Below, in pieces: positions 10,568-28,300 of a stretch of 30,147 bases of DNA (within the stretch, counting starts at the first letter, position 1; each line of letters opens with the position of its first letter). Source of the DNA: Burkholderiales bacterium (GTDB taxonomy: Bacteria > Pseudomonadota > Gammaproteobacteria > Burkholderiales > SG8-39); contig DASQYN010000028.1 in assembly GCA_035639215.1 (NCBI GenBank), positions 1 to 30,147 on the forward strand, written 5' to 3'. The position numbers were made by a program, and so were the translations under genes. The notes beneath the pieces were generated by a model. That model saw only the letters and a list, made by a program, of their open reading frames with translations, was not told the origin of the DNA and did no database searches.

Positions 10568-11046
10568 GGCGTGAGCTCGAACGCGTCCGCGCCGCACTCG
10601 TGGGCGAGCAGCCAACGCTTGGCCTCCAGGAGATAGCCGCCGGTCGAGTGCGCGAAGCCGCCGATGCCGTTCGCGGCGACCACGCGGTGGCAGGGGATGA
10701 CGATCGGCAGGCGGTTGTCGCCGCAGGCCTGGCCGACTGCGCGCGGCTCGCCGCCGAGCCGCCGCGCGAGCTCGCCGTAGGTGAGCGTCTTGCCGCGCGG
10801 GATCTCGCCGAGCGCCGCCCAGAGCCGTCGCTGGAACGGCGTGCCTTCCACGAGCAGCGGCAGGTCGAAGCGCGTGTCGGGATTTGCGCGATACGCCTCC
10901 AGCTGCCTTGCCGCTTTCTCGCCCAATGGGCTCTTCGGGGAGACCACCCGGGCCGAAGGCGGCAGATAGCAGATGTCCGTCACCCGTTCGTCCCGCGTTC
11001 TCACCGCCACTTTCATGCGCGGGAACTCGACGACTACGTCGTACAT
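10564..11046 (-). CDS. ogt: Methylated-DNA-protein-cysteine methyltransferase (160 aa)
   Basis: GTPFQRRLW, TYGELA, RAVGQA and active-site IPCHRV motifs. Confidence 0.95.
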   Translation of the reverse strand: MYDVVVEFPRMKVAVRTRDERVTDICYLPPSARVVSPKSPLGEKAARQLEAYRANPDTRFDLPLLVEGTPFQRRLWAALGEIPRGKTLTYGELARRLGGEPRAVGQACGDNRLPIVIPCHRVVAANGIGGFAHSTGGYLLEAKRWLLAHECGADAFELTP

Positions 11047-12038: not shown

Positions 12039-12045
12039 GGCTACG

Positions 12046-12055
12046 ATTCTATTCT
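12046..12055. promoter_or_regulatory. Overlapping divergent -10 elements (TAGAAT minus, TATTCT plus)
   Basis: TAGAAT (12051-12046) lies 7 nt before GTG 12038 with no SD. TATTCT (12050-12055) precedes the GAGGAG RBS of the hydrolase. Confidence 0.55.
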
Positions 12056-12078
12056 GCGAATTCGAGGAGACAGAATCC

Positions 12079-12747
12079 ATGGGCAAGATGATCGAGCTCA
12101 CCGCTGCCGACGGCCAGAAGCTTTCCGCGTACCGGGCCGACCCGGGCGGCAAGCCGCGCGGCGCCATCGTCGTCATCCAGGAAATCTTCGGCGTCAACAG
12201 CCACATCAAATCGGTGGCCGACGGCTACGCCGCCGACGGCTACCTCGCCATCGCGCCGGCGCTCTTCGATCGCGTGAAGACCGGCGTGGACCTCGGTTAT
12301 TCGCCCGACGACATCGCCAAGGGCCGGGAGATCCGAGGCAAGGTCACGAACGAAATGGCGATGAGGGACGTCGCCGCGGCGGTGAAAGCCGTCTCGGGCG
12401 CCGGCAAAGTGGGCATCGTCGGCTACTGCTGGGGCGGATTGGTGACCTGGCTCGCTGCCGAGAAAGTGCCCGGCCTCGCGGCGGCGGCGCCGTACTACGG
12501 CGGCGGCATGCCGGACCAGGCGGCCGTGCAGCCCAAGGTGCCGGTGATGGGCCACTTCGGCAGCAAGGATGCGCACATCCCGGTGGAGGGCGTGAAGAAG
12601 CTCGCCGCGGCGCATCCGAAGCAGCAGTTCTTCATCTACGAGGCGGACCACGGCTTCAACTGCGACCAGCGCGGCTCCTACAACGCCGCGGCGGCCAAGG
12701 AAGCGCGCGCGCGCACGCTAGAGTTCTTCCGGAAGCATGTCGGCTAG
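12079..12747 (+). CDS. Dienelactone hydrolase family protein (222 aa)
   Basis: QEIFG, nucleophile GYCWGG and HGF motifs. GAGGAG RBS before ATG 12079. Confidence 0.93.
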   Translation: MGKMIELTAADGQKLSAYRADPGGKPRGAIVVIQEIFGVNSHIKSVADGYAADGYLAIAPALFDRVKTGVDLGYSPDDIAKGREIRGKVTNEMAMRDVAAAVKAVSGAGKVGIVGYCWGGLVTWLAAEKVPGLAAAAPYYGGGMPDQAAVQPKVPVMGHFGSKDAHIPVEGVKKLAAAHPKQQFFIYEADHGFNCDQRGSYNAAAAKEARARTLEFFRKHVG

Positions 12748-12769: not shown

Positions 12770-13333
12770 TCAGCCGAGCAGCGCTTTGCGGAAGCGATCT
12801 TTCAGCGCCACGCCGTCGAGCGGCGGCAGCACCAGCGGCAGCTTCTCGGCGGCAACTTTCACCGTAGCGAACGCCGGGCCTTCGTGCCGGTGAACGCATG
12901 ACCGCAGGTTCTTCAAGCTCGCTTCATCCGTGACGATCGAGGCGTGCGCGAAGCGGCAGGCCTTGGCCACGGCCGCGAGGTCGACGCCGTGGGCGGTGTG
13001 CGTCGCCTGCATGCCGGTCTCGCCGTAGCGCTCGTTGTCGATCACCACGACGGAGAGGTTCTTCGGCTGCTGCACGCCGATGGTCGCGAGCGCGCCGAGG
13101 CCCATCAGCATCTCGCCGTCGCCGGTGAGGACCAGGACCGGGCGCTGCGGCTGCGCGAGCGCCAGGCCGAGCCCGATCATCGCCGCCTGGCCCATCGCGC
13201 CCCAGAGCGGGAAAGACAGATCGCAGTCGCCCGCCGCGGTGATGTCCCAGGCGGTGGACCCCAGTCCCGCTACCACCAATAGCTCGCCACGCTGTTCCAG
13301 GAGCTTCTTCACTACATCACGACGATGCAGCAT
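12770..13333 (-). CDS. ThDP-dependent decarboxylase beta subunit, ComE-like (sulfopyruvate decarboxylase type)
   Basis: GAMG, ThDP motif GDGEMLM...DN and GETGMQ. Stand-alone subunit of about 190 aa, paired with the alpha subunit. Confidence 0.8.
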   Translation of the reverse strand: MLHRRDVVKKLLEQRGELLVVAGLGSTAWDITAAGDCDLSFPLWGAMGQAAMIGLGLALAQPQRPVLVLTGDGEMLMGLGALATIGVQQPKNLSVVVIDNERYGETGMQATHTAHGVDLAAVAKACRFAHASIVTDEASLKNLRSCVHRHEGPAFATVKVAAEKLPLVLPPLDGVALKDRFRKALLG

Positions 13334-13853
13334 TGGTCTGCTCCTGGAAGCTCTTGATGCCGATCACGCGCTGGGCGATGAGCACCGCCTCGGCGCCCTG
13401 CGCCTCGAAGGCGAGCTGCAGCGCGGCGCGCGCGTGTGCGGCGACCGTCTGCGCCTCGCCCGCCTGGCGCACCGCGACGCCCATGGTCTCCAGCACCCTC
13501 GCGGTGTTCTCGCCCATCGGCACCTGCCAGGTGTTGAACTCGCCCTGCTCGCCGCGCATCGTCACGAGAAGCACCAGCGGCAGGCGGCAGGTCTTCACCA
13601 TGGCGAGCGCGTTGACGATGTTGCCCACGCCGCTCGACTGCATGAGCACGACGCTCTTTTCCCCGCCGAGCCAGGCGCCGGCGGCGAGGCCGATGCCCTC
13701 TTCCTCGGTGGTGAGCGGCACGGTGCGCATGCCGGGGTCGGCATGGCAAAGCTCGATCAGGCGCTTGTGCCCGGCGTCGGGCACGTAGCCGACGACGCGC
13801 ACGCCGGCGCGCTTCAGCTCCTGGTGGACTTCGGCGGGCCAGTCAGGCGGCAT
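13317..13853 (-). CDS. ThDP-dependent decarboxylase alpha subunit, ComD-like
   Basis: VPD, TTEEEGIG and LMQSSGVGN motifs (Pyr domain with catalytic Glu). About 180 aa, overlaps the beta subunit. Confidence 0.8.
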   Translation of the reverse strand: MPPDWPAEVHQELKRAGVRVVGYVPDAGHKRLIELCHADPGMRTVPLTTEEEGIGLAAGAWLGGEKSVVLMQSSGVGNIVNALAMVKTCRLPLVLLVTMRGEQGEFNTWQVPMGENTARVLETMGVAVRQAGEAQTVAAHARAALQLAFEAQGAEAVLIAQRVIGIKSFQEQTNAASS

Positions 13854-15570
13854 CTCTCAGGAGGCTTTCTCCCGGCCGCACGCGAGTGAAGGCGACCGGC
13901 TTCATCACGACGTTGCCGTCGGCGGCGATGCTCGTGAAGGCCGATGCTTCGAGGGCGCCGCTTTGCGGAAAATCCTCGCGGAAGTGCGCGCCGCGCGAGT
14001 CTTCGCGCGCCAGCGCCGCGGCACAGATGGTACGGCTCACGGCGAGCAGGCTCTTCAGGTTGAGCCAATCGTGCCAGGTGAGGTTGAAGGCGCGCCCGGG
14101 GTCGCCGATTCCCGCCCGGTCGAGAGACGCCTCGAGAGTGGAAAGCTGCGCGGCCGCCTCCGCGAGGCCCCGCGCGTCGCGGATGATCCCGACCTTCTCC
14201 CACATCACGTCGTAGAGAGCTTCGCGCAAGGGCTCGAGGCTTTCCGGCTTTCGCCCGAAGGGGCGCTCGCAGCGGGCAATCGCTTCCGCGACGGCCGCGC
14301 GGTCGGGTTCGCGCAGCCCCGAATCGCGAATGAACGCGGCCATGCTGTCCCCGGCGACCGCGCCGAAGACCGTGGAATTGGCGACGCCGTTGCCGCCGAG
14401 CCGGTTCGCACCGTGGACGCCTCCCGAGTCCTCGCCGGCGACGTAAAGGCCGGCCAGCGCGGTGGAGCAATCGCCGGCGAACTCCACGCCGCCCATCATG
14501 TAGTGGGCGGTGGGGACGACCTCCACCAGCCCGCCCGCGAGGTCGAAGCCGCAATCGGCGCAGCGCTCGACCATGCCTTTGAACTCCCGGCGCACGCGCT
14601 CGGGACCGAGATGCGCCATCGAAATGTAGACGCCGCCGTAGGGGGTCGTGCGGCCGGCGCGCATCTCGGCAAAGATGGCGCGCGAGACGATGTCGCGCGT
14701 GGCGCGCTCGAGCTTCGGGTCGTAGCGCGCCATGAACCGCTCGCGCTCGCCGTTCAGCAGGTAGCCGCCCGAGCCCCGCAGCCCCTCCTCGAGCACCGTG
14801 CCGGTCATGCGCGTCTGCGGCCCGGCGAGCAGCCCGGTCGGGTGGAATTGCACCATCTCCATGTCGCGCAGCCGCAAGCCGGCGCGCAGCGCCATCGCGA
14901 GGCCGTCGCAGCTCTTGTCGCCCGAGGGGGTGTGGTAGCGATACATGGTCGGTCCGCCGCCGGTGGCGAGCAGCACCGCCTTGGCGCGCACGAGCACGTA
15001 TTCGCCGGTGCGCATGTCGATGAAGAGCACGCCGGCGATCGCGTCATTGGCTTTGTTCCTGATCAGCTCGACCGCCCGGTGCTCCTCGAGCCGGTCGATG
15101 CCGCGAGCCCACACCTGCTCCGCCAGGCGGTTGATGATCTCGATGCCGGTGAGATCGCCCTTGTGGACGGTGCGGTCGAACGTCTGGCCCGCGAACGCCT
15201 TCTGGTGCACGGTGCCGTCGGGATTGCGGTCGAAGAAGCAGCCCAGCTCGTTCTCCAGCTCGTGGATGCGCTCCACCGCCAGCGTGACGAGCTGCCAGGC
15301 GAGATCCTGGTCGGGCAGCCACTTGCCGCCTTCGATGGTGTCCATGAAATGGCGCTCGACGGAATCGCCGGCGGCGAGCGCGACGTTGTAGCCGCCCTGA
15401 ACCATGCGCGTGCAGCCGCACTTGCCGAGCAGGCCCTTCACGGCCACCGTGATCGACGCTGGCTGCGCCGCGCGCCGTTGCGCCTGATGGGCGTGCAGCG
15501 CCGCGAACAGGCCGGCGCCGCCCGAGCCGAGGATCAGGAGGTCTGTATCGCGGGTACTTTGCGGAGCCAT
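13843..15570 (-). CDS. SdhA/FrdA/NadB-family flavoprotein, non-canonical
   Basis: GSGGAG, QGG, QFHPTG, RDIVSRA, HYMMGG, HGANRLGGN and REDSRGAHFREDFP motifs. The covalent-FAD His position is Cys. Confidence 0.93.
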   Translation of the reverse strand: MAPQSTRDTDLLILGSGGAGLFAALHAHQAQRRAAQPASITVAVKGLLGKCGCTRMVQGGYNVALAAGDSVERHFMDTIEGGKWLPDQDLAWQLVTLAVERIHELENELGCFFDRNPDGTVHQKAFAGQTFDRTVHKGDLTGIEIINRLAEQVWARGIDRLEEHRAVELIRNKANDAIAGVLFIDMRTGEYVLVRAKAVLLATGGGPTMYRYHTPSGDKSCDGLAMALRAGLRLRDMEMVQFHPTGLLAGPQTRMTGTVLEEGLRGSGGYLLNGERERFMARYDPKLERATRDIVSRAIFAEMRAGRTTPYGGVYISMAHLGPERVRREFKGMVERCADCGFDLAGGLVEVVPTAHYMMGGVEFAGDCSTALAGLYVAGEDSGGVHGANRLGGNGVANSTVFGAVAGDSMAAFIRDSGLREPDRAAVAEAIARCERPFGRKPESLEPLREALYDVMWEKVGIIRDARGLAEAAAQLSTLEASLDRAGIGDPGRAFNLTWHDWLNLKSLLAVSRTICAAALAREDSRGAHFREDFPQSGALEASAFTSIAADGNVVMKPVAFTRVRPGESLLRDAA

Positions 15571-17570
15571 TGCAGAGCGAGCACCACGACCACCAGCGCG
15601 ATGCCTACCGCGTCGGCGGCGGCAGCCGGGTAGACGAGCAGGAATCCGGCCGCTATGAGCATCCAGCGCTCATAGACGCTCGTGCGCTTGAGCAGCCATC
15701 CTTGAAGGCCTCCGGCAAGGGCGACGATGCCAATGGCCGCGGTGACCGTGACGAGACCGATCGAGGCCCAGTTCGCCTGGCCGAGCGTCTTGAACGACCC
15801 GGTGAGCAGCAGCCCGGTGCCGTTCGGGTCGAGCACGAACATGAACGGCACGAGGAACGCCGGCGTCGTGTATTTCCAGCATTGCAGCGTCGTCTTGTAG
15901 GGATCGCCGCCGGTGATGGCGGCCGCGGCGAAGGGCGAAAGCGCCGTGGGCGGCGAAACCTCGGAGAGCACCGCGTAGTAGAAGATGAACATGTGCGCCG
16001 CAAACTCCGGCACGCCCAGCTTGATCAGCGCCGGCGCCGCGATCACCGCGCAGATGATGTAGCTCGCCGTCACCGGCACGGCGAGGCCGACGATCCAGAC
16101 GATGAGCGAAGTGTAGATTGCCGTGAGCAGCAGCGAGCCGCCGGCATACTGCAGCACGATCGAGCTGAACTTGAGCCCGAGCCCGGTGAGCGTCACCACG
16201 CCGACGATGATGCCGGCGCCGGCGCAGGTCGAGGCGACATTCAGGACGCCTAGCGAGCCCCCGGCGAGCGCCTTGATGAGGCCCGACTGCCAAAGGCCGC
16301 GGCCGATCGGCGTCTTGCGTTCGAAGATCTCGTAAGGGATGAGCGACGTGTCGCGGCGCAGCAGGCTGGTCAGCCCCGAGACCACGGTCGCCCAGAACAC
16401 CGAGAGCACGGGCGAGTAGCCCCAGAGCATGAAGAAGACGATGGAGACGAGCGACAGGAAGTGGAACCAGTACTTCTTCGCGAGGCTCCAGGCGCCCTCG
16501 ACGCGCTCGAAGGTGACGTCCTGCATGCCGAATTTGCGCACGTCGATCTCGACCATGGTAAAGAGCGCCAGGTAGTACAGGCCGGTCGGGATGGTCGCCA
16601 TCAGCAGCACGTCGAGGTACGAGATCTTCAGGAACTCGGCGATGAGGAACGCCGCCGCGCCGAGCACCGGCGGGGAGATGATGGCGCCGAGACCGCCCGC
16701 GGACAGCAGCCCGCCCGCCGCATTCTTGCTGTAGCCGACCTTGGCGAGCATCGGATAGGCCACCGAGCCGAGCGTCACCGTCGTCGCCACCCCGGAGCCC
16801 GAGGGACCGCCGAGCAGGAACGAGGCGAGCACCACCGTGCGGCCGGCGCCGGTGGGCCTGCCGCCCATCGCCGCGAACGAGAAATCGATGTAGAACTTGC
16901 CGGCGCCGGAGTACTGCAGGAAGGCGCCGAAGATCGTGAACAGAATGATGAGCGAGGAGGCGACCCCCACCGGCACGCCGAAGATGCCCTCCAGCGTCAT
17001 GTACATGTGGCCGACCAGGCGCGGGACCTCGTAGCCCTTGTGCGTCCAGGGCGGCGGCAGGTACGGGCCGAAGAACGCGTAGAGCAGGAAGCACACCGTG
17101 ATCACCGGCATGATCCAGCCGGTGGCGCGCCGCATCGCCTCGAGCACGAGCACGACGAGCGCGACGCCGAAGAAGATGTCCCAGTCGTTCGGCGTGATCG
17201 AGCGGTCGAAGAAATCGTCGCCCTGGCTGATCAGGTACGCGCACACCGCCACGCCGAGCAGCCCGAGAATCCAGTCCCACCACATGGCGCGATGGCGATA
17301 GCGCCGCGCCACCGGAAAGATCAGGAAGGTGAGGAACAGCACGAACGCCACGTGCGTCGCGCGCAGTACCTCCGTGCGCACGATCTCGTAGGAGGCGTAG
17401 AGGTGGAAGAGCGACATCGCCACCGCGACGAGGGTGACGAACGCCGCCATGCGCCCGGCGAACTTGTTCTGGACGCCTTCCTCCTCCTCGATCATCTCCT
17501 CGGCGCGCTTCAGCGCGTCCTCGGCGATCGCGGCGTCGGGCTGGTGAATCCGGGCGAGCTCGTCGCTCAT
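15534..17570 (-). CDS. TRAP transporter fused 4TM/12TM permease (TAXI type)
   Basis: Many TM helices. EGIFG.P, GSGVATTVTLG, PPVLGAAAF.IAE, Y.AVLS.V.PP motifs. GAGGAG RBS. Confidence 0.95.
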   Translation of the reverse strand: MSDELARIHQPDAAIAEDALKRAEEMIEEEEGVQNKFAGRMAAFVTLVAVAMSLFHLYASYEIVRTEVLRATHVAFVLFLTFLIFPVARRYRHRAMWWDWILGLLGVAVCAYLISQGDDFFDRSITPNDWDIFFGVALVVLVLEAMRRATGWIMPVITVCFLLYAFFGPYLPPPWTHKGYEVPRLVGHMYMTLEGIFGVPVGVASSLIILFTIFGAFLQYSGAGKFYIDFSFAAMGGRPTGAGRTVVLASFLLGGPSGSGVATTVTLGSVAYPMLAKVGYSKNAAGGLLSAGGLGAIISPPVLGAAAFLIAEFLKISYLDVLLMATIPTGLYYLALFTMVEIDVRKFGMQDVTFERVEGAWSLAKKYWFHFLSLVSIVFFMLWGYSPVLSVFWATVVSGLTSLLRRDTSLIPYEIFERKTPIGRGLWQSGLIKALAGGSLGVLNVASTCAGAGIIVGVVTLTGLGLKFSSIVLQYAGGSLLLTAIYTSLIVWIVGLAVPVTASYIICAVIAAPALIKLGVPEFAAHMFIFYYAVLSEVSPPTALSPFAAAAITGGDPYKTTLQCWKYTTPAFLVPFMFVLDPNGTGLLLTGSFKTLGQANWASIGLVTVTAAIGIVALAGGLQGWLLKRTSVYERWMLIAAGFLLVYPAAAADAVGIALVVVVLALQWLRKVPAIQTS

Positions 17571-17583
17571 GGCGCTCCTCTAC

Positions 17584-17619
17584 AAACGAAAAAGCCCCGT
17601 CGTTTCGCTGGACGGGGCT
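17584..17619 (-). terminator. Intrinsic terminator / stabilising hairpin between the TAXI binding-protein and permease genes
   Basis: 9-bp stem AGCCCCGTC/GACGGGGCT followed by TTTTCGTTT on the minus strand. Confidence 0.7.
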
Positions 17620-17637
17620 CGCGGCGGGGACGATCCG

Positions 17638-18585
17638 TTACTGGATCTTGATCCCCTTCTCGGCAAAATACCTGACCGCGCCGGGATGCCAGGGCACGGG
17701 CGAGGCGCTCGTCTTCTGGTTGTCGAGCTTGATGTTCTCTGCCTCCTTGTGCACGCGCACCAGCTCGTCCTTGTGGTCGAAGACGGCTTTGACGATGTTG
17801 TAGGCCGTCTTGTCGTCCATGTTCTGATGCGCGACGAGCAGGTTGTTCACCGAGGCGATGTGGTTGTCCTTGCCCATGCCGTGGTACATGTCGTGCGGGA
17901 TCACGTCGGCCACATAAAGCTCCCCGTACTTCTTGTTCATGGCCGGGACGAGCTCCGCATGGTCGAGGAGCTTGATCTTCACGCCGGGGGTATTGGCGAG
18001 GTCGGTGACCGCCGCGGTCGGCAGCCCGCCCACCCAGAAGAAGGCGTCGATCTTGCGGTCCTTGATCGCGTCCACCGACTCCGCCACGCCGAGCCGCTCG
18101 CGCTTCATGTCGCGGTCCTTGTCGAGCCCCGCCGCCTCGATCACGCGGAACGCCATCACCTCGGTCGCGCTGCCGCCCGAGCCGGTGGAGACGCGCTTGC
18201 CCTTGAGGTCCTTGATCGTGTTGATGCCGGTGCCCTCGATGGTCACGATGTGCATGCGGTTCGGATACATGACGAGCAGCGTGCGCACCGGCACGGGCTT
18301 GCCCTTGAACTTGTCCTGCCCCTTGTAGGCATCGAGCGTCGCATCGGCCATGGTCATGCCGAGGTAGGGCTTGCCGGTGCCGATGAGCTGCAGGTTGGCG
18401 ACCGAGCCGCCAGTCACCTCGGCGGTCGCCTGCATGCCGTCGACGTACTTCGAGAGCACCGCGGCCATGCCGCCGCCGAGCGGATAGTAGACGCCGCCGG
18501 TGCCGCCGGTGCCGATCGAAAGGTTCTGCGCCAGTGCCGTGGTGGCGATGGCAAAAAGCGCCAGCGCGCGAGCGATGATGTGCAT
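17638..18585 (-). CDS. TAXI-family TRAP transporter solute receptor (315 aa)
   Basis: Signal peptide, SIGTGGTGGVYYPLGG, TGGSVAN and PWHPGA.RY motifs. GGAGGAG RBS before ATG 18585. Confidence 0.95.
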   Translation of the reverse strand: MHIIARALALFAIATTALAQNLSIGTGGTGGVYYPLGGGMAAVLSKYVDGMQATAEVTGGSVANLQLIGTGKPYLGMTMADATLDAYKGQDKFKGKPVPVRTLLVMYPNRMHIVTIEGTGINTIKDLKGKRVSTGSGGSATEVMAFRVIEAAGLDKDRDMKRERLGVAESVDAIKDRKIDAFFWVGGLPTAAVTDLANTPGVKIKLLDHAELVPAMNKKYGELYVADVIPHDMYHGMGKDNHIASVNNLLVAHQNMDDKTAYNIVKAVFDHKDELVRVHKEAENIKLDNQKTSASPVPWHPGAVRYFAEKGIKIQ

Positions 18586-18616
18586 TGCCCTGCTCCTCCG
18601 TGTTGGGTCGGCGGCG

Positions 18617-18654
18617 ATTTTAACGCCGAGCCGCACTCAGGTGAATAAGTCACC
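18617..18654 (-). promoter_or_regulatory. Promoter of the TAXI-TRAP-flavoprotein-comDE unit, with an inverted repeat over the -35
   Basis: -10 TAAAAT (18622-18617). TTCACC (18645-18640) lies 17 nt upstream. GGTGA-N5-TCACC at 18640-18654. Confidence 0.5.
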
Positions 18655-19213: not shown

Positions 19214-19825
19214 CTAGCCTTTGACGCCGAGCTTGCGCAGCGCCTCGGCGCGGCGGCTGCGCGCCGATCGGTCCACCGCCGCGTAGAGGCTCGCGCCGTG
19301 GCTGTCCATCGCCACGAGCAGCGGGCCGAAGCCGCGTATCCGGAACTTCCACAGCGACTCCGGGTTGAGGTCGTCCAGGTCGACGTCCTCGATCGCTTCT
19401 ATCCACGTCGTCTCGAGCGCCGCGGTGCCGCCGATGATGGCTAGGTATGCGCCGCCCAGGTCCTTGAAGGATTGCAGGGAGCCTTCGCGCAGGCCGCCCT
19501 TGCCGATGAGGAGACGCACGCCGTACTGCTGCATCAGCGGCCGGGTGAAGCGCTCCATGCGGTCGCTCGTCGTGGTGCCGATGCATACCGGCGCGTAGCC
19601 GGTGGGATGGCGCGCGTCCTTCTCGACCTTGCGCACGTTTGGCGCAGTGTGGATCACCGCGTGACCGGAAAGCTCGAAGCGCGTCTTTCGCCCGCGGTCG
19701 AACATGTGGATCTGCGTCGCGTCGCGGATGCCGAACAGCGTGCCGTTGAGCGTTACGGTGTCCTGCACGCGCAGCGCCCGCGCCTGCGGCTCGCTGATCG
19801 GCATGTCGAAATCGTAATGCGCCAT
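19214..19825 (-). CDS. Fe-S hydro-lyase beta subunit (class I fumarase C-terminal / TtdB-like, 203 aa)
   Basis: G.L...RDA, GTTTS.RM, IGKGG and FGPLLVAMDSHG.SLY motifs. Confidence 0.92.
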   Translation of the reverse strand: MAHYDFDMPISEPQARALRVQDTVTLNGTLFGIRDATQIHMFDRGRKTRFELSGHAVIHTAPNVRKVEKDARHPTGYAPVCIGTTTSDRMERFTRPLMQQYGVRLLIGKGGLREGSLQSFKDLGGAYLAIIGGTAALETTWIEAIEDVDLDDLNPESLWKFRIRGFGPLLVAMDSHGASLYAAVDRSARSRRAEALRKLGVKG

Positions 19826-19827
19826 CG

Positions 19828-20484
19828 TCAGCCCTTTTCGCTTCTGTGCCGATCGATCCAGTATCCGGCGGCGCCGGTCACCAGCCCGCCAGCGAGCCCG
19901 ACCCAGGCGATCGCGGAGACGCTCGGCGGCGGCGGGCCGAAGGCGGCGCCGATGTAGGCGAGGACGAGAAAGGCGAGCAGGCCGTAGAGCGCCCAGTGCC
20001 CGGTGCGGTCGAGGGCCTGCGAGCCGGCAAGGTAGAAGCGGAAGCCGGCGACGAAGACCGCGCCTTCGACCAGCAGCGTCCCCGCGACCGAGTTCCACAG
20101 GCCGAAGCCGACCTTCAGGTCGCTGCCGGGCGCGAGCGGCAGGTCGGGCCGGTGCACCACGAGGTCGAGGAACCAGTGCGACAGCACGACGAGCGCGACG
20201 ACCGCCGCCGTGAGCCAGCGCCGGCGCACCGCGAAGTACAGGCCGCCGAAGACCAGCGCCCAGACGACGCTCATCAGCAGGCTGTGGCTCCACGGGTAGT
20301 GCTGGAAGTCGAGCGGCGTAAAGCGCGTGATGCCCGGCGCGATCGCCATCGTCTCCATGCCGGCGAAGAGGAAGATCGGCCAGAGGAGATCGACCAGCTC
20401 GCAGGCGATGAAAAGCGTGCCGAGCGAGACGGTGGGGGCAGCGCGCTTCGCGGCGAACGCGACCCCAAAGTGGCCGATGAACAT
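19828..20484 (-). CDS. Membrane-bound metal-dependent hydrolase (YdjM-like)
   Basis: MFIGH, DLLWP, PWSHSL and SHWFLD.VVH motifs with several TM helices. Confidence 0.7.
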   Translation of the reverse strand: MFIGHFGVAFAAKRAAPTVSLGTLFIACELVDLLWPIFLFAGMETMAIAPGITRFTPLDFQHYPWSHSLLMSVVWALVFGGLYFAVRRRWLTAAVVALVVLSHWFLDLVVHRPDLPLAPGSDLKVGFGLWNSVAGTLLVEGAVFVAGFRFYLAGSQALDRTGHWALYGLLAFLVLAYIGAAFGPPPPSVSAIAWVGLAGGLVTGAAGYWIDRHRSEKG

Positions 20485-21050
20485 CAGCCGCCGAGCAGCT
20501 GCTGCTTGATGTCGTCCTGCACCGGATGCTCGCCGAGCCAGATGCGCAGCAACGCGCGATAGAAGTCCTCGCCGGCGATCGGCTGACCGGCCGGCTGCCC
20601 GTCGATCGAGACGCGCGTCGCGCCGGCGCTCCAGTCGAGCGCGATGGTCATGCCCTTCTTCGCCTCCTTCACCTGCGCCATGATCGCCTCGAGCTGCTTC
20701 ACCCGCGGCTCGAGCGCCTGGTAGTCGGCCTCCGAGTGGTTGGCCTTGAGGCCTTCGACGAGCGCCTCCGAGAACGTGTCGGCGCCGACGTCGCGCAGCA
20801 TGTGGAGCGAAACCCGTTTCGGGCCGGCGAGCGCGAGCACGGCCGCCGCGTCCTTCGTCTTCTCCGGCAGGTAGAGGCCGATCACGTAGACCTTGAAGAA
20901 CAGCCGCTTGCGCAGGCCCGCGCCGTTCAGGACCAGCTCGCGCGCTTCCACCTGCGCCTTGTCGGCGAGCTGCACGCCGGCGACTTCCGCCGCTTGGCCG
21001 GCGAGCGGGAAAACCAGGAAGGCAACCAGGGCGAAGGCTCTAAAAGCCAT
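20484..21050 (-). CDS. Exported chalcone-isomerase-fold protein
   Basis: Signal peptide, LVLNGAGLR..LFFKVYVIGLYL and F..ALL.IWLG..PV motifs. Confidence 0.85.
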   Translation of the reverse strand: MAFRAFALVAFLVFPLAGQAAEVAGVQLADKAQVEARELVLNGAGLRKRLFFKVYVIGLYLPEKTKDAAAVLALAGPKRVSLHMLRDVGADTFSEALVEGLKANHSEADYQALEPRVKQLEAIMAQVKEAKKGMTIALDWSAGATRVSIDGQPAGQPIAGEDFYRALLRIWLGEHPVQDDIKQQLLGG

Positions 21051-21912
21051 ACTCGAGACCCGAGGGGCGGAAAGTGGCGCGCGCGCGGCGCGCGGAATGG
21101 CATTGCATGTTCACCGCCACCGGGTTCATGGTGATGTGCGTCGCGGCGGTCTCGACGTGCACGGCGAAGGCGGTGCCGTCTCCGCCGAGCCCCTGGGGTC
21201 CTACGCCGAGCCCGTTGACCGCCGCGGTGAGCTCGGGCTCGAGCCGCGCGCCCTCCGGATCGGCGCAGCTCGTGCCGAGCGCCCGGGTCGCCGCCACCTT
21301 GGCAAGGTGCACGCACAGGTCGGCCGTGCCGCCGATGCCGACGCCGACGATGGTCGGCGGGCAGGTCTTGCCGCCGGCGTCGAGCACGCAGTCGATGACG
21401 AAGCTTTTCACCGCGTCGACGCCCTCGGCCGGCACCGCCATGCGCAGCCACGAGTTGTTCTCGGAGCCCGAGCCCTTCGGAATCATCTCCAGGACGAGCG
21501 CCTCGTCCTCGCTGAAGTCGATGTTGATCACCGGCACGCCGCGTCCCGTGGAGGTGTGCTGGTTCTGGCGCGTCAGCGGATGCACGACCGAGGAGCGCAG
21601 CGGATGCTCTCGCGTCGCGCGCTCGCAGCCGCGGCGGATCGCCTCCTTCAGCGCGACGCCGTCCACTTCGACGCCGCGGCCGATCCAGACGTTGTAGATC
21701 GGGATGCCGGTGTCCTGGCAGAGCAGGTTGTCGGTCGACTCGGCCACCGCGATGTTGCGCATCATGGTGCCAAGCATGCGCTTCGCGCCGGCATCGCTCT
21801 CGCGCGCCGCGAGCGCGTCGAATCCCTGCTTCACGTCCGGGGGCAGCTGCTTCAGCGCCCGGATGTACAGCGCCTTCGCCGCTTCCTCCAACTGGCGAAG
21901 GTCGATCCTCAT
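21040..21912 (-). CDS. Fe-S hydro-lyase alpha subunit (class I fumarase N-terminal / TtdA-like)
   Basis: CQDTG, KGSGSEN, CPP..VGVGIGG, G.GPQGLGG and QCHSARR motifs; three cluster cysteines. Confidence 0.93.
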   Translation of the reverse strand: MRIDLRQLEEAAKALYIRALKQLPPDVKQGFDALAARESDAGAKRMLGTMMRNIAVAESTDNLLCQDTGIPIYNVWIGRGVEVDGVALKEAIRRGCERATREHPLRSSVVHPLTRQNQHTSTGRGVPVINIDFSEDEALVLEMIPKGSGSENNSWLRMAVPAEGVDAVKSFVIDCVLDAGGKTCPPTIVGVGIGGTADLCVHLAKVAATRALGTSCADPEGARLEPELTAAVNGLGVGPQGLGGDGTAFAVHVETAATHITMNPVAVNMQCHSARRARATFRPSGLEYGF

Positions 21913-21931: not shown

Positions 21932-22903
21932 TCATTTCACATGAATGTCGCGCTCTTTGACGACCTTGGCCCAGAGCGCGGTCTCTTCCTTGATCGCCCG
22001 GCCGAACTCCTCGGGCGTATTGCCGACCGGCGCGAGCCCCTGCACGTAGAGCCTGCCGCGCAGGTCGCTCGCCTGCAGCGCCGTCTTCGTGTCCACGTAT
22101 ACCTTGCGGATCACTTCCTTCGGCGTACCGGCGGGCGCGACGATGCCGAACCAGCCGGCGTTCTCGAATCCCGGAACCGTCCGGGCAATCGGCGGCACGC
22201 CCGGAAGTTGCGGCGCCTCGGTCTTGCTCGTCACGCCGAGGGCGCGCAGCCGGCCGCCGTTGATATGGCCGATCGCCGCAGCCACGTTGCCGACGAAGAA
22301 GTCGACTTCGCCGGCGACGAGCGCGGCGTGGCCGGGGCCTTCCCCCTTATAGGGCACGGCGAGCGCGTCGATTTTCGCCTGCCAGAGAAAATTCTCGGCC
22401 GCGAGATGCGTCTGCGAGCCGATGCCGGCATGGCCGAAGGTGAGCTTGCCGGGATTGGCGCGCGCGTAGTCGATCAGGTCCTTGACGGTCTTGAAAGGCG
22501 ACTTCGCCGGCACGGTGAGCACCTGCGGCCCGGACACCACGTTGGTGACGGGCACGAAGTCCTTTTCCGGGTCGTAGGCGAGCTTCGCGTAGATGTGCTG
22601 ATTCGCCGTGATCACCGACCCCGAGGGAAAGAATAGCGTGTAGCCGTCCGGCGTGGCGCGCGCCGCCTCCGCGGCGCCTACCCCGCCGCCCGCGCCGCCG
22701 CGGTTCTCGATCACGACCGTCTGACCCCAGATCTGTCCGAGCTTCTCGCCGAGCAGCCGCGCCGAGATGTCGGTGGCGCCGCCCGGCGGGAACGGCACGA
22801 TGAACTTCACCGGCTTCTGCGGCCACGACTGGCCCCACGCCGCGCTGCTCAGGACGAGCGCCGCAAGCGCCGCCCAGACTCTGCCGTTCTTGAAAACTTT
22901 CAC
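21932..22903 (-). CDS. Bug/TctC-family substrate-binding protein
   Basis: Signal peptide, PVKFIVPFPPGGATD, VPYKG and WFGIVAPAGTP motifs. AAGGAGG RBS. Confidence 0.93.
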   Translation of the reverse strand: MKVFKNGRVWAALAALVLSSAAWGQSWPQKPVKFIVPFPPGGATDISARLLGEKLGQIWGQTVVIENRGGAGGGVGAAEAARATPDGYTLFFPSGSVITANQHIYAKLAYDPEKDFVPVTNVVSGPQVLTVPAKSPFKTVKDLIDYARANPGKLTFGHAGIGSQTHLAAENFLWQAKIDALAVPYKGEGPGHAALVAGEVDFFVGNVAAAIGHINGGRLRALGVTSKTEAPQLPGVPPIARTVPGFENAGWFGIVAPAGTPKEVIRKVYVDTKTALQASDLRGRLYVQGLAPVGNTPEEFGRAIKEETALWAKVVKERDIHVK

Positions 22904-22922: not shown

Positions 22923-22928
22923 ATTCTA
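22923..22928 (-). promoter_or_regulatory. Putative internal -10 (TAGAAT) overlapping the upstream TAG stop
   Basis: TAG-AAT, followed by AAGGAGG and GTG 19 nt downstream. Confidence 0.45.
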
Positions 22929-23228
22929 CAGCGCGAGGGCGAAGGCGAGCCCGACCGCGAGCGCGAGCGCCGCGGCGGCCGCGGCGAGGCTCTTCTGCCA
23001 TTCGTGCCAGTCGAGCAGCTCGATCGCGAGAACGCGCAGGCCGGCGCCGAGATGCACGGCGAGCAGCACGACGATCCCCCACTCGGCCAGCTTGACGAGC
23101 GGCTGCTCGGTCCAGGCGAGGAACGACTGCAGCTCGAGCCCCTTGCCGAGCGCCCAGAAATGCAGCGGCAGGAAGGCGGCGAGCGCCAGCCCGGAGACCC
23201 GGTGCAGAAGGGCGAGCGCCTTGCTCAC
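22926..23228 (-). CDS. SdhC-like cytochrome b membrane anchor (100 aa)
   Basis: LHRVSG and VH...GLR motifs, three TM helices, GTGA coupling. Confidence 0.85.
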   Translation of the reverse strand: MSKALALLHRVSGLALAAFLPLHFWALGKGLELQSFLAWTEQPLVKLAEWGIVVLLAVHLGAGLRVLAIELLDWHEWQKSLAAAAAALALAVGLAFALAL

Positions 23229-23563
23229 AGGAACATCGTGAGCGCCGCGCGCAGGCCCATCCACGCGAGAAGCGCGGCGAAAAGGGCGAGCGCGATGTCG
23301 CGGCCGCGGCCGCGCCAGCGCAGCCACTCTATCGCGATGGCGCGAAGGCCAATCGGCGCATGCACCGCGACGGCGAGCACGAACACCGAGTAAAAGGCGA
23401 GCCAGGCGTGATTGCCGTGGGTGCGCGCCTGGATCTCGGCGGCCGAAAGCCCGCCGCGCACCGCATAAACGATCGTGGCGAGGTGCACCACGACGCACAC
23501 GCCGAGCACCGCCGCGCTTATGCGCTGCGCGAGCCAGAGCGTCGTCTCCGAGCGCGTGCTCAC
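23225..23563 (-). CDS. SdhD-like membrane anchor (112 aa)
   Basis: QRISA, VVHL and VHAPIGLR motifs, three TM helices, GTGA coupling to the Fe-S subunit. Confidence 0.85.
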   Translation of the reverse strand: MSTRSETTLWLAQRISAAVLGVCVVVHLATIVYAVRGGLSAAEIQARTHGNHAWLAFYSVFVLAVAVHAPIGLRAIAIEWLRWRGRGRDIALALFAALLAWMGLRAALTMFL

Positions 23564-24276
23564 AGCTCGCCCTCCAGCGCGGCCTTCGCGACGGCGCGCT
23601 TCAACCCCGCGATCGAGGCAGTAGGCGACAGGTGCTTCGGGCAGCGCTGCGTGCAGCTCATGTGCGTGTGGCAGGCATGGCAGCCGGCATCGCCGGCGAC
23701 CGCGCGAAGGCGCGCGAGGCGCTCCCGGTCCCGTTCGTCGTTGACCAGCGTCCAGGCGCGGTTGAGCGCCGCCGGTCCGAGATAGTTCCGGTTCCACGCG
23801 ACGACGTCGCAAGCGGCGTAGCAGACGCCACAGCCGATGCATTCGATTCCGGCGTCTACCGCTTTTCGATTCTGCGTCGACGGGGGGACTTTCGCGAAAT
23901 CATCGCTGCGTCCGCGATCGCCGGCGAACTGGCCCTTGGCGCTTGCCCACTTGTCGAAAAATTCGCGCATGTCGGTGACGAGGTCGCGGATCACCGGCAG
24001 ATTGCGCAAAGGCGCAACCGTCAGCTCATTCTTCTGGCAAACCCGGTCCACGTGCGTCCGGCAAGTCCAGCGCGGCGCGCCGTTCACCGTCATCGCGCAC
24101 GAGCCGCACATGCCGACCCGGCAGGCGTAGCGATAGGCGAGCGTCGGATCGAGCGCGCGCTGGATGTGGATGACCACGTCGAGCACGGTCTGGCTGGGAT
24201 GCCGCGGCACCGAGAAGGCCTGGAATTCGCCTTGCGCCGCTCCTCTCCAGACGCGCACTTTCAGGGTGGCGCTCAT
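23560..24276 (-). CDS. SdhB/FrdB-like iron-sulfur subunit (238 aa)
   Basis: CRVGMCGSC...C [2Fe-2S], CIGCGVCYAAC [4Fe-4S], CHTHMSCTQRCP [3Fe-4S type]. ATGA coupling. Confidence 0.95.
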   Translation of the reverse strand: MSATLKVRVWRGAAQGEFQAFSVPRHPSQTVLDVVIHIQRALDPTLAYRYACRVGMCGSCAMTVNGAPRWTCRTHVDRVCQKNELTVAPLRNLPVIRDLVTDMREFFDKWASAKGQFAGDRGRSDDFAKVPPSTQNRKAVDAGIECIGCGVCYAACDVVAWNRNYLGPAALNRAWTLVNDERDRERLARLRAVAGDAGCHACHTHMSCTQRCPKHLSPTASIAGLKRAVAKAALEGEL

Positions 24277-25349
24277 CGCACCGTCACCTGCAGGCGCTGC
24301 ACGGCATTGTTGCCCATGCCGCCACGGTTCCAGTCCGGCTCGAGCGGCTGCTCGGCCCCCTCGGCGTCGCCAGCGCGGCACGCGAGCTCGTGCTCGCCCG
24401 GCAACGCGTCCCATGTTGCGCGCCAGCGCTGCCAGGCGAAGCGCTGCGAAGGCGGCTCGACCTCGGCGGCGCGCCACTCGCCGTCGACACCGAGCTCGAC
24501 GCGCGTCACCGCCACTCCGGCCCCCGACCAGGCGCGCCCTTCGAGCGTCACCTTCCCGGCGTCCAACAGCCGCCGCCCCGTATACCAATCGGCGATGCCG
24601 GGGGGCGCGATGAGCGACTTCACGCGCGCGTGCCGCACCGGCGTACCCGCCTCTCCCGGTTGCCTGGTATAGCGATAGCCGACGACCTGCTGATAGCCAT
24701 CGAACGGCCGGTCGAGCGCTTCGATGCGCGAAAGCCATTTCACGCTCGCCATGCCGAACCACCCCGGAACGACGAGCCGGAGCGGCGCACCGTGCTGCGG
24801 GGCGAGCGGCTGGCCGTTCATCGCCCAGGCGAGCAGCACCTCCGGCTGCATCGCCTCGGCCACGCTCAGGCTGCGGCCGAAGTGATGCTCCACGCCCGAA
24901 TCGAAGCCGCGATCGGCGCCGAAGAAAGCGATTTCCTTCGCCCCGCCTGGGACCCCAGTGCGTTCCAGGACGGTACGCAAAGCGACACCGGTCCACTCCG
25001 CCGTGCTCACCCCGCCGTACCGCCACGGCATGCTCGGATAGCGCGGGGTGAAGCCGGCGCGGCCGTTTCCCGCGCATTCCAGCGTGACGCGCAGCGTCTT
25101 CGCCGGCATCGCCTGCAGGTCGGCGAGCGAGAACTGGCGCTCGCCGACCGTCAAGCGGTAGGCGGCGGCCTCGAGCCGCGGGATGTCGAAATGCGAGAGC
25201 GTGTAGTGCAGCCCGACCGGCGTCACGTCGTAGCGCAGCGCCTCGAGCGGCAGCGAGACGTGGCGCAGCGCGAGCGCCACCTCCTCAGCCGTGAAGGGGC
25301 CGTCGATATGCGCGCGCCGCTGGCGCTCGAAGAACGGATGCGGCTTCAG
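24273..25349 (-). CDS. Sulfite oxidase-family molybdoenzyme without heme domain (358 aa); start probably CTG at 25349
   Basis: Mo-ligand [12 protein letters not shown]...[18 protein letters not shown] and a C-terminal dimerisation domain. Confidence 0.9.
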
Positions 25350-26515
25350 GCGCTTTCGTACAGCCTGGTCAGGACGAACTCGCGATGGCCGAGCGCCTCG
25401 GCGGCGGTGAGGCGGCCGTTGGCGGTGCGGAACAGGCACTCGAGCAGCTTGTCGCCCGCCTGGTCCGGCGTCAGCTCTTTCCTCAGCAGCCCGGACACGT
25501 CCACGTCGATGTGCTCCGACATCGTGCGCACCGTGCGCGGGTTCGCGCACAGCTTGATCACCGGCAGGATCGGGTTGCCGATCACATTGCCCTGGCCGGT
25601 GGGGAAGAGATGCACCGCGTAGCCCGAGGCGGCGCACAGCGTCACCATCTCGGCGGCCGCCGAAGAGGAGTCCATGAACCAAAGGCCGGGGCCGGTCGGC
25701 GTCTCGGCCTTGTCGAGCACGCCGTCGACCATGCACTTGCGGCCGATCTTCTGGATGTTGCCGAGCGCCTTCTCCTCGATGGTCGTGAGGCCGCCGGCGA
25801 TGTTGCCCTTGGTCGGCTGCGAATCCGAGAGGTCGTTGGTCTTGTGGCGGTTGATCACGTCCTGATAGCGGTCGAACATGAACTGGAAGCGCTTCCTCAC
25901 CTCGTCGTTGCGGCAGCGCGCGGCGACGAGGTGCTCGCCGCCGGTGAGCTCGGTGGTCTCGCCGAAGACCAGCGTCACGCCGTGCGGGTAGAGCTTGTCG
26001 AAGGCGTTGCCGACGGTCGGATTCGAGCCGCAGCCGGAGGTGGTATCGGACTCGCCGCACTTCGTCGATACCCAGAGGTCCTTGAGCGGCCGCTCCTCGC
26101 GGCGCAGCTCGCTCGCCCATTGCACGAGCTCCTTGGCCTTCTTCGAGGCGCGCAGGATGGTGTCGTGGTCGCCGTGCTGCTCGATGCCGAAGTAGGCGAC
26201 CGGCTTGCCGGTCGCCGCGATGCCGTCGGCGACCTTCTTCGCCCACTGGTCCTCGATGCAGATGACGATCACGGCGGCGACGTTCGGGTTGGCGCCCGTG
26301 CCGATCAGCGTGCGAAAGTGAAGGTCGAGGTCGGCGCCGAACTGCAGCCGCCCGTAGGGGTGCGGCAGCGCCATCGTGCCTTTGACGGCGTTCTCCACCG
26401 CCCGCGCGGCCGCGTTCGAGAGATCGTCGACCGGCAGGATGATGACGTGGTTGCGGACGCCGACGCGCCCGTTCTCGCGCTTGTAGCCCCAGAAAGTCGC
26501 TTTCGAAAGTTCCAT
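25346..26515 (-). CDS. suyB: (2R)-sulfolactate sulfo-lyase beta subunit (UxaA family, 389 aa)
   Basis: [54 protein letters not shown] and [10 protein letters not shown]. These match the SuyB subgroup as recalled. Directly follows a SuyA-type SAF subunit. Confidence 0.88.
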
Positions 26516-26532
26516 TTGCGTTGCCACCCTCG

Positions 26533-26814
26533 TTACCACCTTTTGGTCTTGAGGTTATGCACGTGCAGATGCTCGCCCTTGGCGATCGGCTGCACCACCT
26601 TGCCGATGTCGACGCCGTACTTGATCACCGTGTCGCCCGGCTTGTAGTCGCGCAGGGCGACCTTGTGGCCGATCGGAATGTCGCTCTTCGCGAGCACCTG
26701 GAGGTCCTTGTCGTCCTCCATGATCCAGCCCGACAGAGGCTGGCCGGCCTTCACACCTTCGACGACGACCACGCCGACGCCGTCGCCTTCCTCGTGCACT
26801 ACGAAATGAATCAC
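26533..26814 (-). CDS. suyA: (2R)-sulfolactate sulfo-lyase alpha subunit (SAF domain, 93 aa)
   Basis: FVVH...[26 protein letters not shown] and [10 protein letters not shown] motifs. Confidence 0.88.
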
Positions 26815-26917: not shown

Positions 26918-28300
26918 ATGAAAAAACCCAATTTTCTGGTCATCCTGATCGACGACCTGCGCTTCGACGAATTCGGCGCCGGCGGCCATCCGTACATGAA
27001 GACGCCGCACATCGACCGTATCGCGCGCGAAGGCGCGCTCTTCGAGCGGGCCTTCCATACCACGCCGATCTGCTCGCCGAACCGCGCCTCGATCATGACC
27101 GGGCAGTACGCGAGCCGGCACGGCATCATCGACAACGTGGCGCGCGACGCGATGAGCCACCGCCTGCCGAACTACCACCGCGTGCTGCAGGAGCTAGGCT
27201 ACGAGACCGCGCACGTCGGCAAGTGGCACATGGGCAACGACGGTCGGCCGCGTCCCGGCTACGACCATTGGATCTCCTTCGACGGCCACGGCCGCCTGCA
27301 GGATCCGAAGCTCAACATCAACGGCACCTACGAGCAGAAGAGCGGGTACATCACCGACCTGCTGAACGACTACGCGCTCGAGTTCCTGGCGCGCAAGCGG
27401 GCGAAGCCCTTCTCGCTCTTTCTCGCGCACAAGGCCGTCCATCCCGATGCCGAGCAGGCGGCCGACGGCACCCTCGACCTCGTCGGCTATGTCCCGGCCG
27501 AGCGGCACAAGGACCTCTACCGGGGCTGCCGCTTCCCGAAGCTGCCGAACATGCTGCCGCCGGAGAAGGTGGCGAAGCAGAAGCCCGCCTGGGCCGAAGC
27601 CTTCGAGCTCAAGCGCTCCGAGCGCTCGCGCCGGCTCCTCGAGCCGATCCACGCCGGCAGCCAGGAGGAGATCCGCTTGCGCGCCGCGATGATGGCCTCT
27701 GTCGACGAAGGTGTCGGTCGGATCTTCGAGCGGCTCGAGCGCTCGGGTGAGCTCGACCGCACGCTCGTCCTTTTCCTCGGCGACAACGGCTACTTCTTCG
27801 GCGAGCATGGATTGGGACCGGAGCGGCGCTTCGCCTACGAAGCCGGCATACGCTCGCCATTCGCCGTTCGTTTTCCACGACTCATCAGGAAACCGCGCAA
27901 ACCCCGAAACCTCGTGATCTGCCAAGACATCGCTCCCACGCTGATCGAGCTCGCCGGCGGCAAGCCGGGGCCGCAGATCCAGGGCCGCTCGCTCGTTCCC
28001 GTTCTGCGCGGCAAGAAGCCGCGTGACTGGCGGAAGTCGATCCTCATCGAGTACTGGGCCGAGCAGGCGATGCCGTGGCTCGTCGGCATGACCTATAAGG
28101 CCATCCGCACCGACCGCTACAAATACATCCACTGGGTCAACCGCGGCCGTGCTGGTGAGCTCGACGAACTTTACGACCTCGAGAAGGACCCGTGGGAGCT
28201 GAAGAACCTGAACGCCAGCCCGGCACATCGGCGAGTCCGGGCCAAGCTGAAGAACGAGCTACGCCGCCTCGTTAGCGATGCGGTGAGCCTGAAGCTCTAG
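26918..28300 (+). CDS. Cys-type formylglycine-dependent sulfatase, no signal peptide
   Basis: N-terminal DD, CSPNRASIMTG (CxPxR), GKWH, GDNGY..GEH and ELYDLEKDPWE motifs. Confidence 0.95.
   Translation: MKKPNFLVILIDDLRFDEFGAGGHPYMKTPHIDRIAREGALFERAFHTTPICSPNRASIMTGQYASRHGIIDNVARDAMSHRLPNYHRVLQELGYETAHVGKWHMGNDGRPRPGYDHWISFDGHGRLQDPKLNINGTYEQKSGYITDLLNDYALEFLARKRAKPFSLFLAHKAVHPDAEQAADGTLDLVGYVPAERHKDLYRGCRFPKLPNMLPPEKVAKQKPAWAEAFELKRSERSRRLLEPIHAGSQEEIRLRAAMMASVDEGVGRIFERLERSGELDRTLVLFLGDNGYFFGEHGLGPERRFAYEAGIRSPFAVRFPRLIRKPRKPRNLVICQDIAPTLIELAGGKPGPQIQGRSLVPVLRGKKPRDWRKSILIEYWAEQAMPWLVGMTYKAIRTDRYKYIHWVNRGRAGELDELYDLEKDPWELKNLNASPAHRRVRAKLKNELRRLVSDAVSLKL

Follow-up and report, generated by a model that had tools for sequence, protein, structure and literature searches.

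Does a sulfite-oxidase-like molybdenum (Mo) enzyme, encoded directly upstream of the iron-sulfur (Fe-S) subunit of a complex-II-like module, stand in for the flavoprotein of that module? The question is raised by a window of 30,147 nucleotides, the whole of contig C28 from a Burkholderiales assembly that is 92% complete and has its nearest relatives in the Burkholderiales. On its minus strand suyB, the Mo gene and SdhB-like, SdhD-like and SdhC-like genes follow one another in this order, as an earlier sequence-only reading had stated, and the SdhA-like flavoprotein gene begins 7,990 bases beyond the end of the Fe-S gene, in agreement with the distance of about 8 kb given there. That reading went on to place the Mo enzyme in the position of sdhA, coupled to the Fe-S subunit as a new sulfite:quinone oxidoreductase or as one of two catalytic heads on a shared Fe-S/heme module, and in this it is not borne out by our analysis. 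We are confident that the partner of the Fe-S subunit is the flavoprotein, and equally that the Mo gene encodes an optional helper and not a replacement for SdhA. The whole statement, in which the Mo enzyme is in addition a soluble cytoplasmic sulfite oxidiser using O2 or a soluble non-heme acceptor, is somewhat better than an even call from sequence and modeling.

The evidence that carries this conclusion is gene order, in a census of the 80 best Fe-S loci from GTDB genomes and in a second census of the 151 genomes of the family, where counts across kin are not independent. The flavoprotein gene is seen in 49 of the 80 loci and lies downstream of the Fe-S gene in all 49, at a distance of 2.2-8.9 kb; it is upstream in none of them, so that the slot filled by the Mo gene is not an sdhA position. 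This slot is itself variable, being held by suyB (24 loci), a thiamine diphosphate (ThDP) enzyme (15), a LysR gene (7), the Mo gene (6), soeC (6), a hydrolase (4), a 2-hydroxyacid dehydrogenase (3), comC (2) or other genes (8), or falling at a contig edge (5). In the family the Fe-S gene is present in 99 genomes, the flavoprotein in 100 and both together in 95 of the 104 that have at least one. The Mo gene is found in 47 of the 151 genomes, inside the cluster in 11, where it abuts the Fe-S gene in four, and elsewhere in 36, often directly before comD; a further 57 genomes have the cluster and no match to the Mo gene. Adjacency of the two genes, seen in 6/80 loci and 4/99 Fe-S genomes, is far from obligate, and none of the 11 genomes that carry the Mo gene in the cluster, nor any of 14 long loci, has lost the flavoprotein. 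In homologous loci the Mo gene also stands before comC, the 2-hydroxyacid dehydrogenase, the ThDP enzyme or fumarase alpha, or after fumarase beta, and is in this way split from the Fe-S gene in many of them. Five intact loci on plasmids of isolates (Methylobacterium, Paracoccus, Pseudomonas, Sulfitobacter and Pseudorhizobium) contain the Fe-S, D, C, flavoprotein and fumarase genes, in the order B-D-C-A-fum or B-D-C-fum-A, and lack the Mo gene; a gene for a TauE sulfite exporter is nearby in four of the five. Cultured strains in which the locus has the module and no Mo gene include Methylobacterium radiotolerans JCM 2831, Paracoccus seriniphilus and Caballeronia arvi. The ThDP enzyme between suyB and the Fe-S gene in 15 loci, also near the cluster in others, is a conserved protein (L038:7787-9439) that scores below all family cut-offs and is not Xsc.

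Coupling of the Mo enzyme to the Fe-S subunit also fails to leave a trace in the subunit. On a tree of 96 Fe-S proteins (the trees of this study are quick IQ-TREE or FastTree runs) Mo adjacency changes state at least nine times, and well-supported sister pairs differ in it. No Fe-S residue is diagnostic of the Mo-adjacent copies, as the largest frequency difference reached 0.44, where shuffling gave a 95th percentile of 0.38. Prediction of a complex between the Fe-S subunit and the Mo enzyme, run with alignments, gave a score of 0.00 against a mark of 0.32, which we take as evidence neither way. Residues 199-212 of the Fe-S subunit are unusual in their own right: an extra conserved Cys199 makes a CxxCH-like string, and His205, at the usual non-ligand position of the 3Fe-4S motif, is histidine in all 27 Mo-adjacent copies and in 67% of the others; these residues raise the possibility that the third cluster is not the same as in complex II.

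The Mo enzyme has only two recognised domains, Oxidored_molyb (PF00174) and Mo-co_dimer (PF03404), and no cytochrome gene adjoins it; 120 homologues contain no Tat-like (twin-arginine translocation) motif, and there is no hydrophobic leader, the best 15-residue hydropathy being 1.28, at residues 24-38. The absence of an export signal, a heme domain and a cytochrome partner, as first read from the sequence, is thus confirmed. The N-terminus was poorly modelled from 93 close homologues; a deeper alignment gave the final model, with a predicted local distance difference test score (pLDDT) of 97.3, which matches chicken sulfite oxidase (SO) and SorA with Z ~41 and a root-mean-square deviation (rmsd) of ~2 A, and MsrP with Z 17.7. 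The protein is therefore a member of the SUOX fold family, with a molybdenum-cofactor domain and a dimerisation domain (Z 41 to chicken SO). SorA of Starkeya novella (2blf), SorT of Sinorhizobium meliloti (4pw3) and the Mo domain of chicken SO (1sox) have the same two-domain fold, with Z 39-41, rmsd 2.0-2.5 A and ~32% identity, and share the Mo-binding Cys and the equivalents of His140/57, Tyr322/236 and Arg190. In contrast to these enzymes, ours has Leu for Arg138/55/78, has lost the glutamate of the N-x-E motif, and has neither a Tat leader nor a heme domain or cytochrome gene. The hallmarks of SorAB, SorT and SoxCD, namely a Tat leader, a cytochrome c partner gene and a family score, are all absent, the NCBIfam scores being far below the cut-offs (180 against 600 bits for SorA, 156 against 570 for SorT and 179 against 420 for SoxC). 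SoeABC is a cytoplasmic sulfite:quinone oxidoreductase and thus a sulfite sink, the role proposed here for the Mo enzyme, and in six loci soeABC-like genes stand immediately ahead of the Fe-S gene; unlike the Mo enzyme it belongs to the dimethyl sulfoxide reductase family, with its own Fe-S and membrane subunits and an unrelated fold, and the soeA and soeB homologues of this genome lie on other contigs.

The active site is where the enzyme departs from its characterised relatives. The Mo-ligating Cys92 is present in 121 of 121 sequences and aligns with chicken Cys185, and His53, Arg97, Trp109 and Tyr225, invariant in close homologues, are the equivalents of His140, Arg190, Trp204 and Tyr322. 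Leu51 takes the place of chicken Arg138 (Arg55 in SorA, Arg78 in SorT) in 120 of 120 aligned sequences, so that the active-site arginine of the characterised sulfite oxidisers SO, SorA and SorT is missing, a substitution that the sequence-only reading had overlooked, as it had the soeA, soeB and aprBA-like genes of this genome. A wider search for relatives separated 110 sequences of the Arg type from 88 of the Leu type, and the two differ in a coordinated way: the Leu type has lost the N-x-E glutamate, has gained Arg29, Glu36, His48, Asp55, Ser106 and Gln220, and, with the exception of one row, forms one side of a well-supported FastTree split. In chicken SO, Arg190 and Trp204 bind two sulfite oxygens and Arg138, Tyr322 and Arg450 bind the third (PMC5856855), and the SorT equivalent of Arg138 is the dominant electron path to the SorU heme (PMC4760952). 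Because leucine replaces an arginine that serves both in sulfite binding and in the electron path, 'sulfite oxidase' is an annotation by fold; the loss of an electron exit to heme fits an enzyme with no heme partner. DraSO of Deinococcus radiodurans, whose gene lies in a hydroxyphenylacetate cluster, and the S. meliloti pSymA enzyme are likewise devoid of a leader, a heme domain and an adjacent cytochrome, with ~42% identity to the Mo enzyme; unlike it, they keep the arginine and fall on the other branch of the tree. Judged by its sequence, the Mo enzyme is a cytoplasmic, heme-less member of a separate and uncharacterised branch of the sulfite oxidase family.

The distribution of this Leu branch points to the substrate. 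Nearly every proteobacterial member sits in or close to the cluster, and of nine unlinked loci examined in the family, eight have the Mo gene immediately ahead of comD/comE-like genes or one gene further upstream, with an ATGA overlap at the Mo/comD-like junction in two. For a distant member the next gene downstream is msmA, recognised by its diagnostic 26-residue Rieske spacer (PMC4433239). The Mo branch is thus found beside suyAB, comDE-like genes and msmA, and tracks sulfonate catabolism, not the Fe-S subunit. Sulfite is the only product common to these routes, and in other loci the slot of the Mo gene is taken by soeABC-like genes (behind xsc in L065) or TauE-like genes, one of which precedes the Mo gene in L142; these placements speak for a sulfite sink. 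Only one more match came from 300 genomes drawn across the phylum, indicating that the branch is patchy. It also occurs in Arthrobacter, Streptomyces and Deinococcus deserti, with no evident sulfonate genes nearby; the D. deserti member (L190:5794-7134) has a Tat-like leader, and part of the branch may, on this sequence feature, be exported.

The operon itself is a sulfonate-degradation cluster. Its minus-strand order is suyA, suyB, the Mo gene, Fe-S, D-like, C-like, Bug, fumarase alpha, a chalcone-isomerase (CHI)-like gene, YdjM, fumarase beta, a TAXI-TRAP importer, the flavoprotein, comD/comE-like genes and, further on, a comC-like gene:

26533-26814, minus strand: SuyA, sulfo-lyase small subunit; its gene immediately precedes suyB, as it does in homologous loci
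25346-26518, minus strand: SuyB, sulfolactate sulfo-lyase large subunit, 80% identical to a UxaA-family gene of the Cupriavidus pinatubonensis hpsN/hpsO cluster
24273-25349, minus strand: sulfite-oxidase-family molybdoenzyme, leaderless and heme-less, of the Leu-for-Arg138 branch (PF00174 and PF03404, fold model, residues)
23560-24276, minus strand: SdhB/FrdB-like Fe-S subunit (Fer2_3 and Fer4; TIGR00384 above cut-off; cluster cysteines kept in 96 homologues)
23225-23563, minus strand: SdhD-like membrane anchor (PF01127)
22926-23228, minus strand: SdhC-like membrane anchor (PF01127; isolate homologues annotated sdhC)
21932-22903, minus strand: Bug/TctC substrate-binding protein (homologue has PF03401; in 61/80 loci)
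21040-21912, minus strand: fumarate/tartrate hydro-lyase alpha-like subunit (TIGR00722 and NF004885 above cut-off)
19214-19825, minus strand: fumarate/tartrate hydro-lyase beta-like subunit (TIGR00723 just below cut-off; core cluster member)
15534-18636, minus strand: TAXI-TRAP importer, binding protein and fused permease (by sequence; an optional insert in homologous loci)
13843-15570, minus strand: SdhA/FrdA-like flavoprotein (FAD_binding_2 and Succ_DH_flav_C; alignment to FrdA)
12770-13853, minus strand: ComD/ComE-like (sulfopyruvate-decarboxylase-like) pair (best match TIGR03845, below its cut-off; PF02775)
11034-12209, minus strand: ComC-like gene of the sulfolactate/malate dehydrogenase family (best match NF040650, below its cut-off)

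The flavoprotein is most likely the partner of the Fe-S subunit, and the two with their anchors, in one operon in 49 loci, place the module in the complex II superfamily. All the parts of E. coli SdhCDAB and FrdABCD are matched here, flavoprotein, Fe-S subunit and two small anchors, and the catalytic residues His243, Arg292, His356 and Arg390 are kept in an alignment of the flavoprotein to FrdA; we take His68 of the SdhD-like anchor to sit in an SdhD-like heme-ligand motif. The module differs from complex II in its order B-D-C...A, in its fumarase-like and sulfonate neighbours, and in two active-site positions, with Cys53 in place of the histidine that links flavin adenine dinucleotide (63/63 sequences) and Glu261 in place of the substrate-binding Thr. 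These two residues and the four catalytic ones are invariant or nearly so in 56-63 homologues. The flavoprotein scores below all SdhA, FrdA, TfrA and NadB cut-offs and, with its flavin-linking histidine replaced, is not SdhA or FrdA proper; an ordinary sdhCDAB is encoded separately on contig C405. Elsewhere in the genome, contig C120 has a second sdhB with an sdhC-like gene and no flavoprotein match, and contig C211 has another divergent SdhA/SdhB-like pair. A route from 3-sulfopropionate via sulfoacrylate to sulfolactate has been reported from a thesis (PMC11489063), and the Sdh-like module, the fumarase-like pair and SuyAB would match its steps, so that this genome joins the candidates for it. 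A Paracoccus 'fumarate and tartrate' cluster with TauE ('cluster 3'), which we liken to ours by description only, is induced on sulfofucose (bioRxiv 2023.08.01.551581).

From gene content, co-occurrence, fold and residue changes, all shown by the analysis, we infer the substrates, the acceptor and the absence of physical contact in the following model. The Fe-S subunit and the two anchors would form a complex-II-like enzyme with the downstream flavoprotein, which most likely oxidises 3-sulfopropionate to sulfoacrylate; the fumarase-like pair would hydrate sulfoacrylate to sulfolactate, and SuyAB would cleave this to pyruvate and sulfite. We propose that the Mo enzyme, as a separate, optional and soluble cytoplasmic protein, turns the sulfite set free in this way into sulfate, with oxygen-atom transfer at the cysteine-bound molybdenum cofactor, and that its electrons would go to O2 or a soluble non-heme carrier and not to the Fe-S subunit. 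Cytoplasmic detoxification of sulfite, as the sequence-only reading had it, is thus still the likeliest job of this heme-less enzyme tied to sulfite-releasing catabolism; the hand-over of electrons to the Fe-S subunit finds no support.

Several observations weigh against this model. The equivalent of Arg138, which hydrogen-bonds sulfite throughout catalysis (PMC5856855), is kept in the aligned solved sulfite oxidisers and also in the leaderless D. radiodurans and Sinorhizobium pSymA enzymes, we found no characterised member of the Leu branch, and no electron acceptor of the Mo enzyme was identified. Of the 11 genomes that have the Mo gene in the cluster, 10 also have soeB, so the Mo enzyme does not fill an empty sink; an anti-correlation of the Mo gene with soeB was not seen, as soeB is also in 20/36 genomes with an unlinked Mo gene and 41/57 cluster genomes that lack it. 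Among 65 Leu-branch genes sampled, with a bias to close relatives, 30 have the Fe-S gene as their immediate downstream neighbour, and this arrangement is found in two deep branches of the Fe-S tree, so that the adjacency may be old.

The alternative that survives best, unlikely as we judge it, is that the Mo enzyme is a sulfinate oxidase, which would convert organic sulfinates (3-sulfinopropionate, methanesulfinate or cysteine sulfinate) to sulfonates and so feed the pathway. With Arg190 and Trp204 kept and Arg138 lost, the nearby coordinated changes could make room for an alkyl group, and the coexistence of soeB and the Mo gene in 10 of 11 genomes fits this idea, as do several alpha-type loci in which the Mo gene accompanies the Sdh-like and fumarase genes and the stretch examined contains no suyAB. 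An Mdo-like thiol dioxygenase is encoded in this genome (L203:1357-1965, contig C686), upstream of a gene like those of the flavin mononucleotide-dependent hydroxy-acid dehydrogenases, and also counts for it; yet co-occurrence with Mdo-like genes was not seen in the family (6/11 cluster-Mo, 19/36 unlinked-Mo and 40/57 Mo-less cluster genomes; a Pfam CDO_I search was too insensitive). Sulfite as substrate would account for all three gene contexts, but a sulfinate oxidase would have to act on another compound in each; Arg450 is missing also from SorA, a true sulfite dehydrogenase, and our literature search found no Mo-dependent sulfinate oxidase.

A shade more unlikely still is some other chemistry, on an S-sulfonate or as S- or N-oxide reduction in the manner of MsrP, or no role at all for a mere operon passenger. 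MsrP-type proteins, too, are without this arginine. Members of that type act as reductases (PMC7759655), the Leu-branch members of Arthrobacter, Streptomyces and D. deserti have no evident sulfonate genes as neighbours, and upstream of the unlinked Mo genes (L211-L219), which precede the comD/comE-like genes, lie genes for a TRAP importer, a PatB-like C-S lyase and a ChaC-like protein. The CHI-like and YdjM genes are already optional passengers of this operon. Against other chemistry stand the retained oxyanion-binding Arg190, Trp204 and Tyr322 and the much closer fold match to SO and SorA than to MsrP, and against a passenger the recurrent placement beside three kinds of sulfonate genes.

For docking of the Mo enzyme on the Fe-S subunit one may cite cases among both the alpha-type (Mo-B-D-C-A) and the beta-type loci in which the Mo gene is followed immediately by the Fe-S gene, often with an ATGA or GTGA overlap, and the position of most characterised bacterial sulfite oxidoreductase genes upstream of their acceptor (PMC3561395). 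The 47 family genomes with no cluster have no Mo match, a count in which kin are not independent. A cytoplasm-facing sulfite:quinone oxidoreductase, with the Mo enzyme replacing or alternating with the flavoprotein, would run thermodynamically downhill but is very improbable, since SdhA covers the [2Fe-2S] face of SdhB in complex II, every sampled genome with the Mo gene in the cluster retains the flavoprotein, and the Mo gene so often lies apart from a subunit that shows no mark of it. Taken with this, a Leu branch of molybdenum sulfinate oxidases, acting on 3-sulfinopropionate in the Sdh-like route and on methanesulfinate with MsmABCD, or, less likely, providing a second head on the Fe-S module, is a minority prospect, a little ahead of either part. 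A complex II with swappable heads was a tempting idea, poorly supported, and is removed by these results. The interest of the locus lies less in its gene order than in the uncharacterised Arg-less branch: in the sulfite-oxidising enzymes that have been studied, the arginine lost here is central both to the binding of sulfite and to the exit of electrons, and a widespread branch that lacks it beside cytoplasmic desulfonation enzymes would represent either a new mode of cytoplasmic sulfite oxidation or a new reaction of the family.

The gene junctions, described in the sequence-only reading as NTGA overlaps, do all four overlap by four bases: CTGA at suyB/Mo, ATGA at Mo/Fe-S and GTGA at both Fe-S/D-like and D-like/C-like. 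The first of these offers only a CTG start, for the Mo gene (25346-25349, minus strand) has no ATG, GTG or TTG at the suyB stop and an apparent CTG start at 25349. This CTG is common to about ten close relatives, and other homologues have TTG, GTG or ATG a few bases further. A start at the GTG of codon 24, the choice of gene callers, is unlikely, as residues 1-23 are conserved in homologues, including ones with ATG starts, and residues 1-30 are ordered in the model (pLDDT 84-94); we take these residues as the genuine N-terminus, with no leader. The weak CTG start may keep the Mo enzyme at a low level. Overlaps are also found in the operon at fumA/CHI-like, CHI-like/YdjM, TRAP/flavoprotein and flavoprotein/comD, and in several loci with no Mo gene suyB overlaps the Fe-S gene directly; because these pairs and the optional passengers overlap in the same way, the overlaps carry no special message. 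A scan for promoters and terminators gave matches at chance level only.

The CHI-like and YdjM-like genes (19828-21050, minus strand) are inserted between fumarase alpha and beta, and both are optional in homologous loci. Divergent from suyA lies a sulfatase gene (26918-28300, plus strand). Beyond the window, the genome has soeA, soeB, aprBA-like and six TauE-family genes. A remnant of soeC on contig C517 (~5290-5510, minus strand) consists of ~70 residues in which N- and C-terminal motifs are joined, through either an internal deletion or an assembly collapse. The soeA gene, split over two contigs, and soeB (contigs C288 and C517) lie near aprBA-like, CbbX-like, CbbY-like and fructose-1,6-bisphosphatase genes, and this combination of Calvin-cycle-like and sulfur genes suggests a potential for sulfur-oxidising autotrophy.

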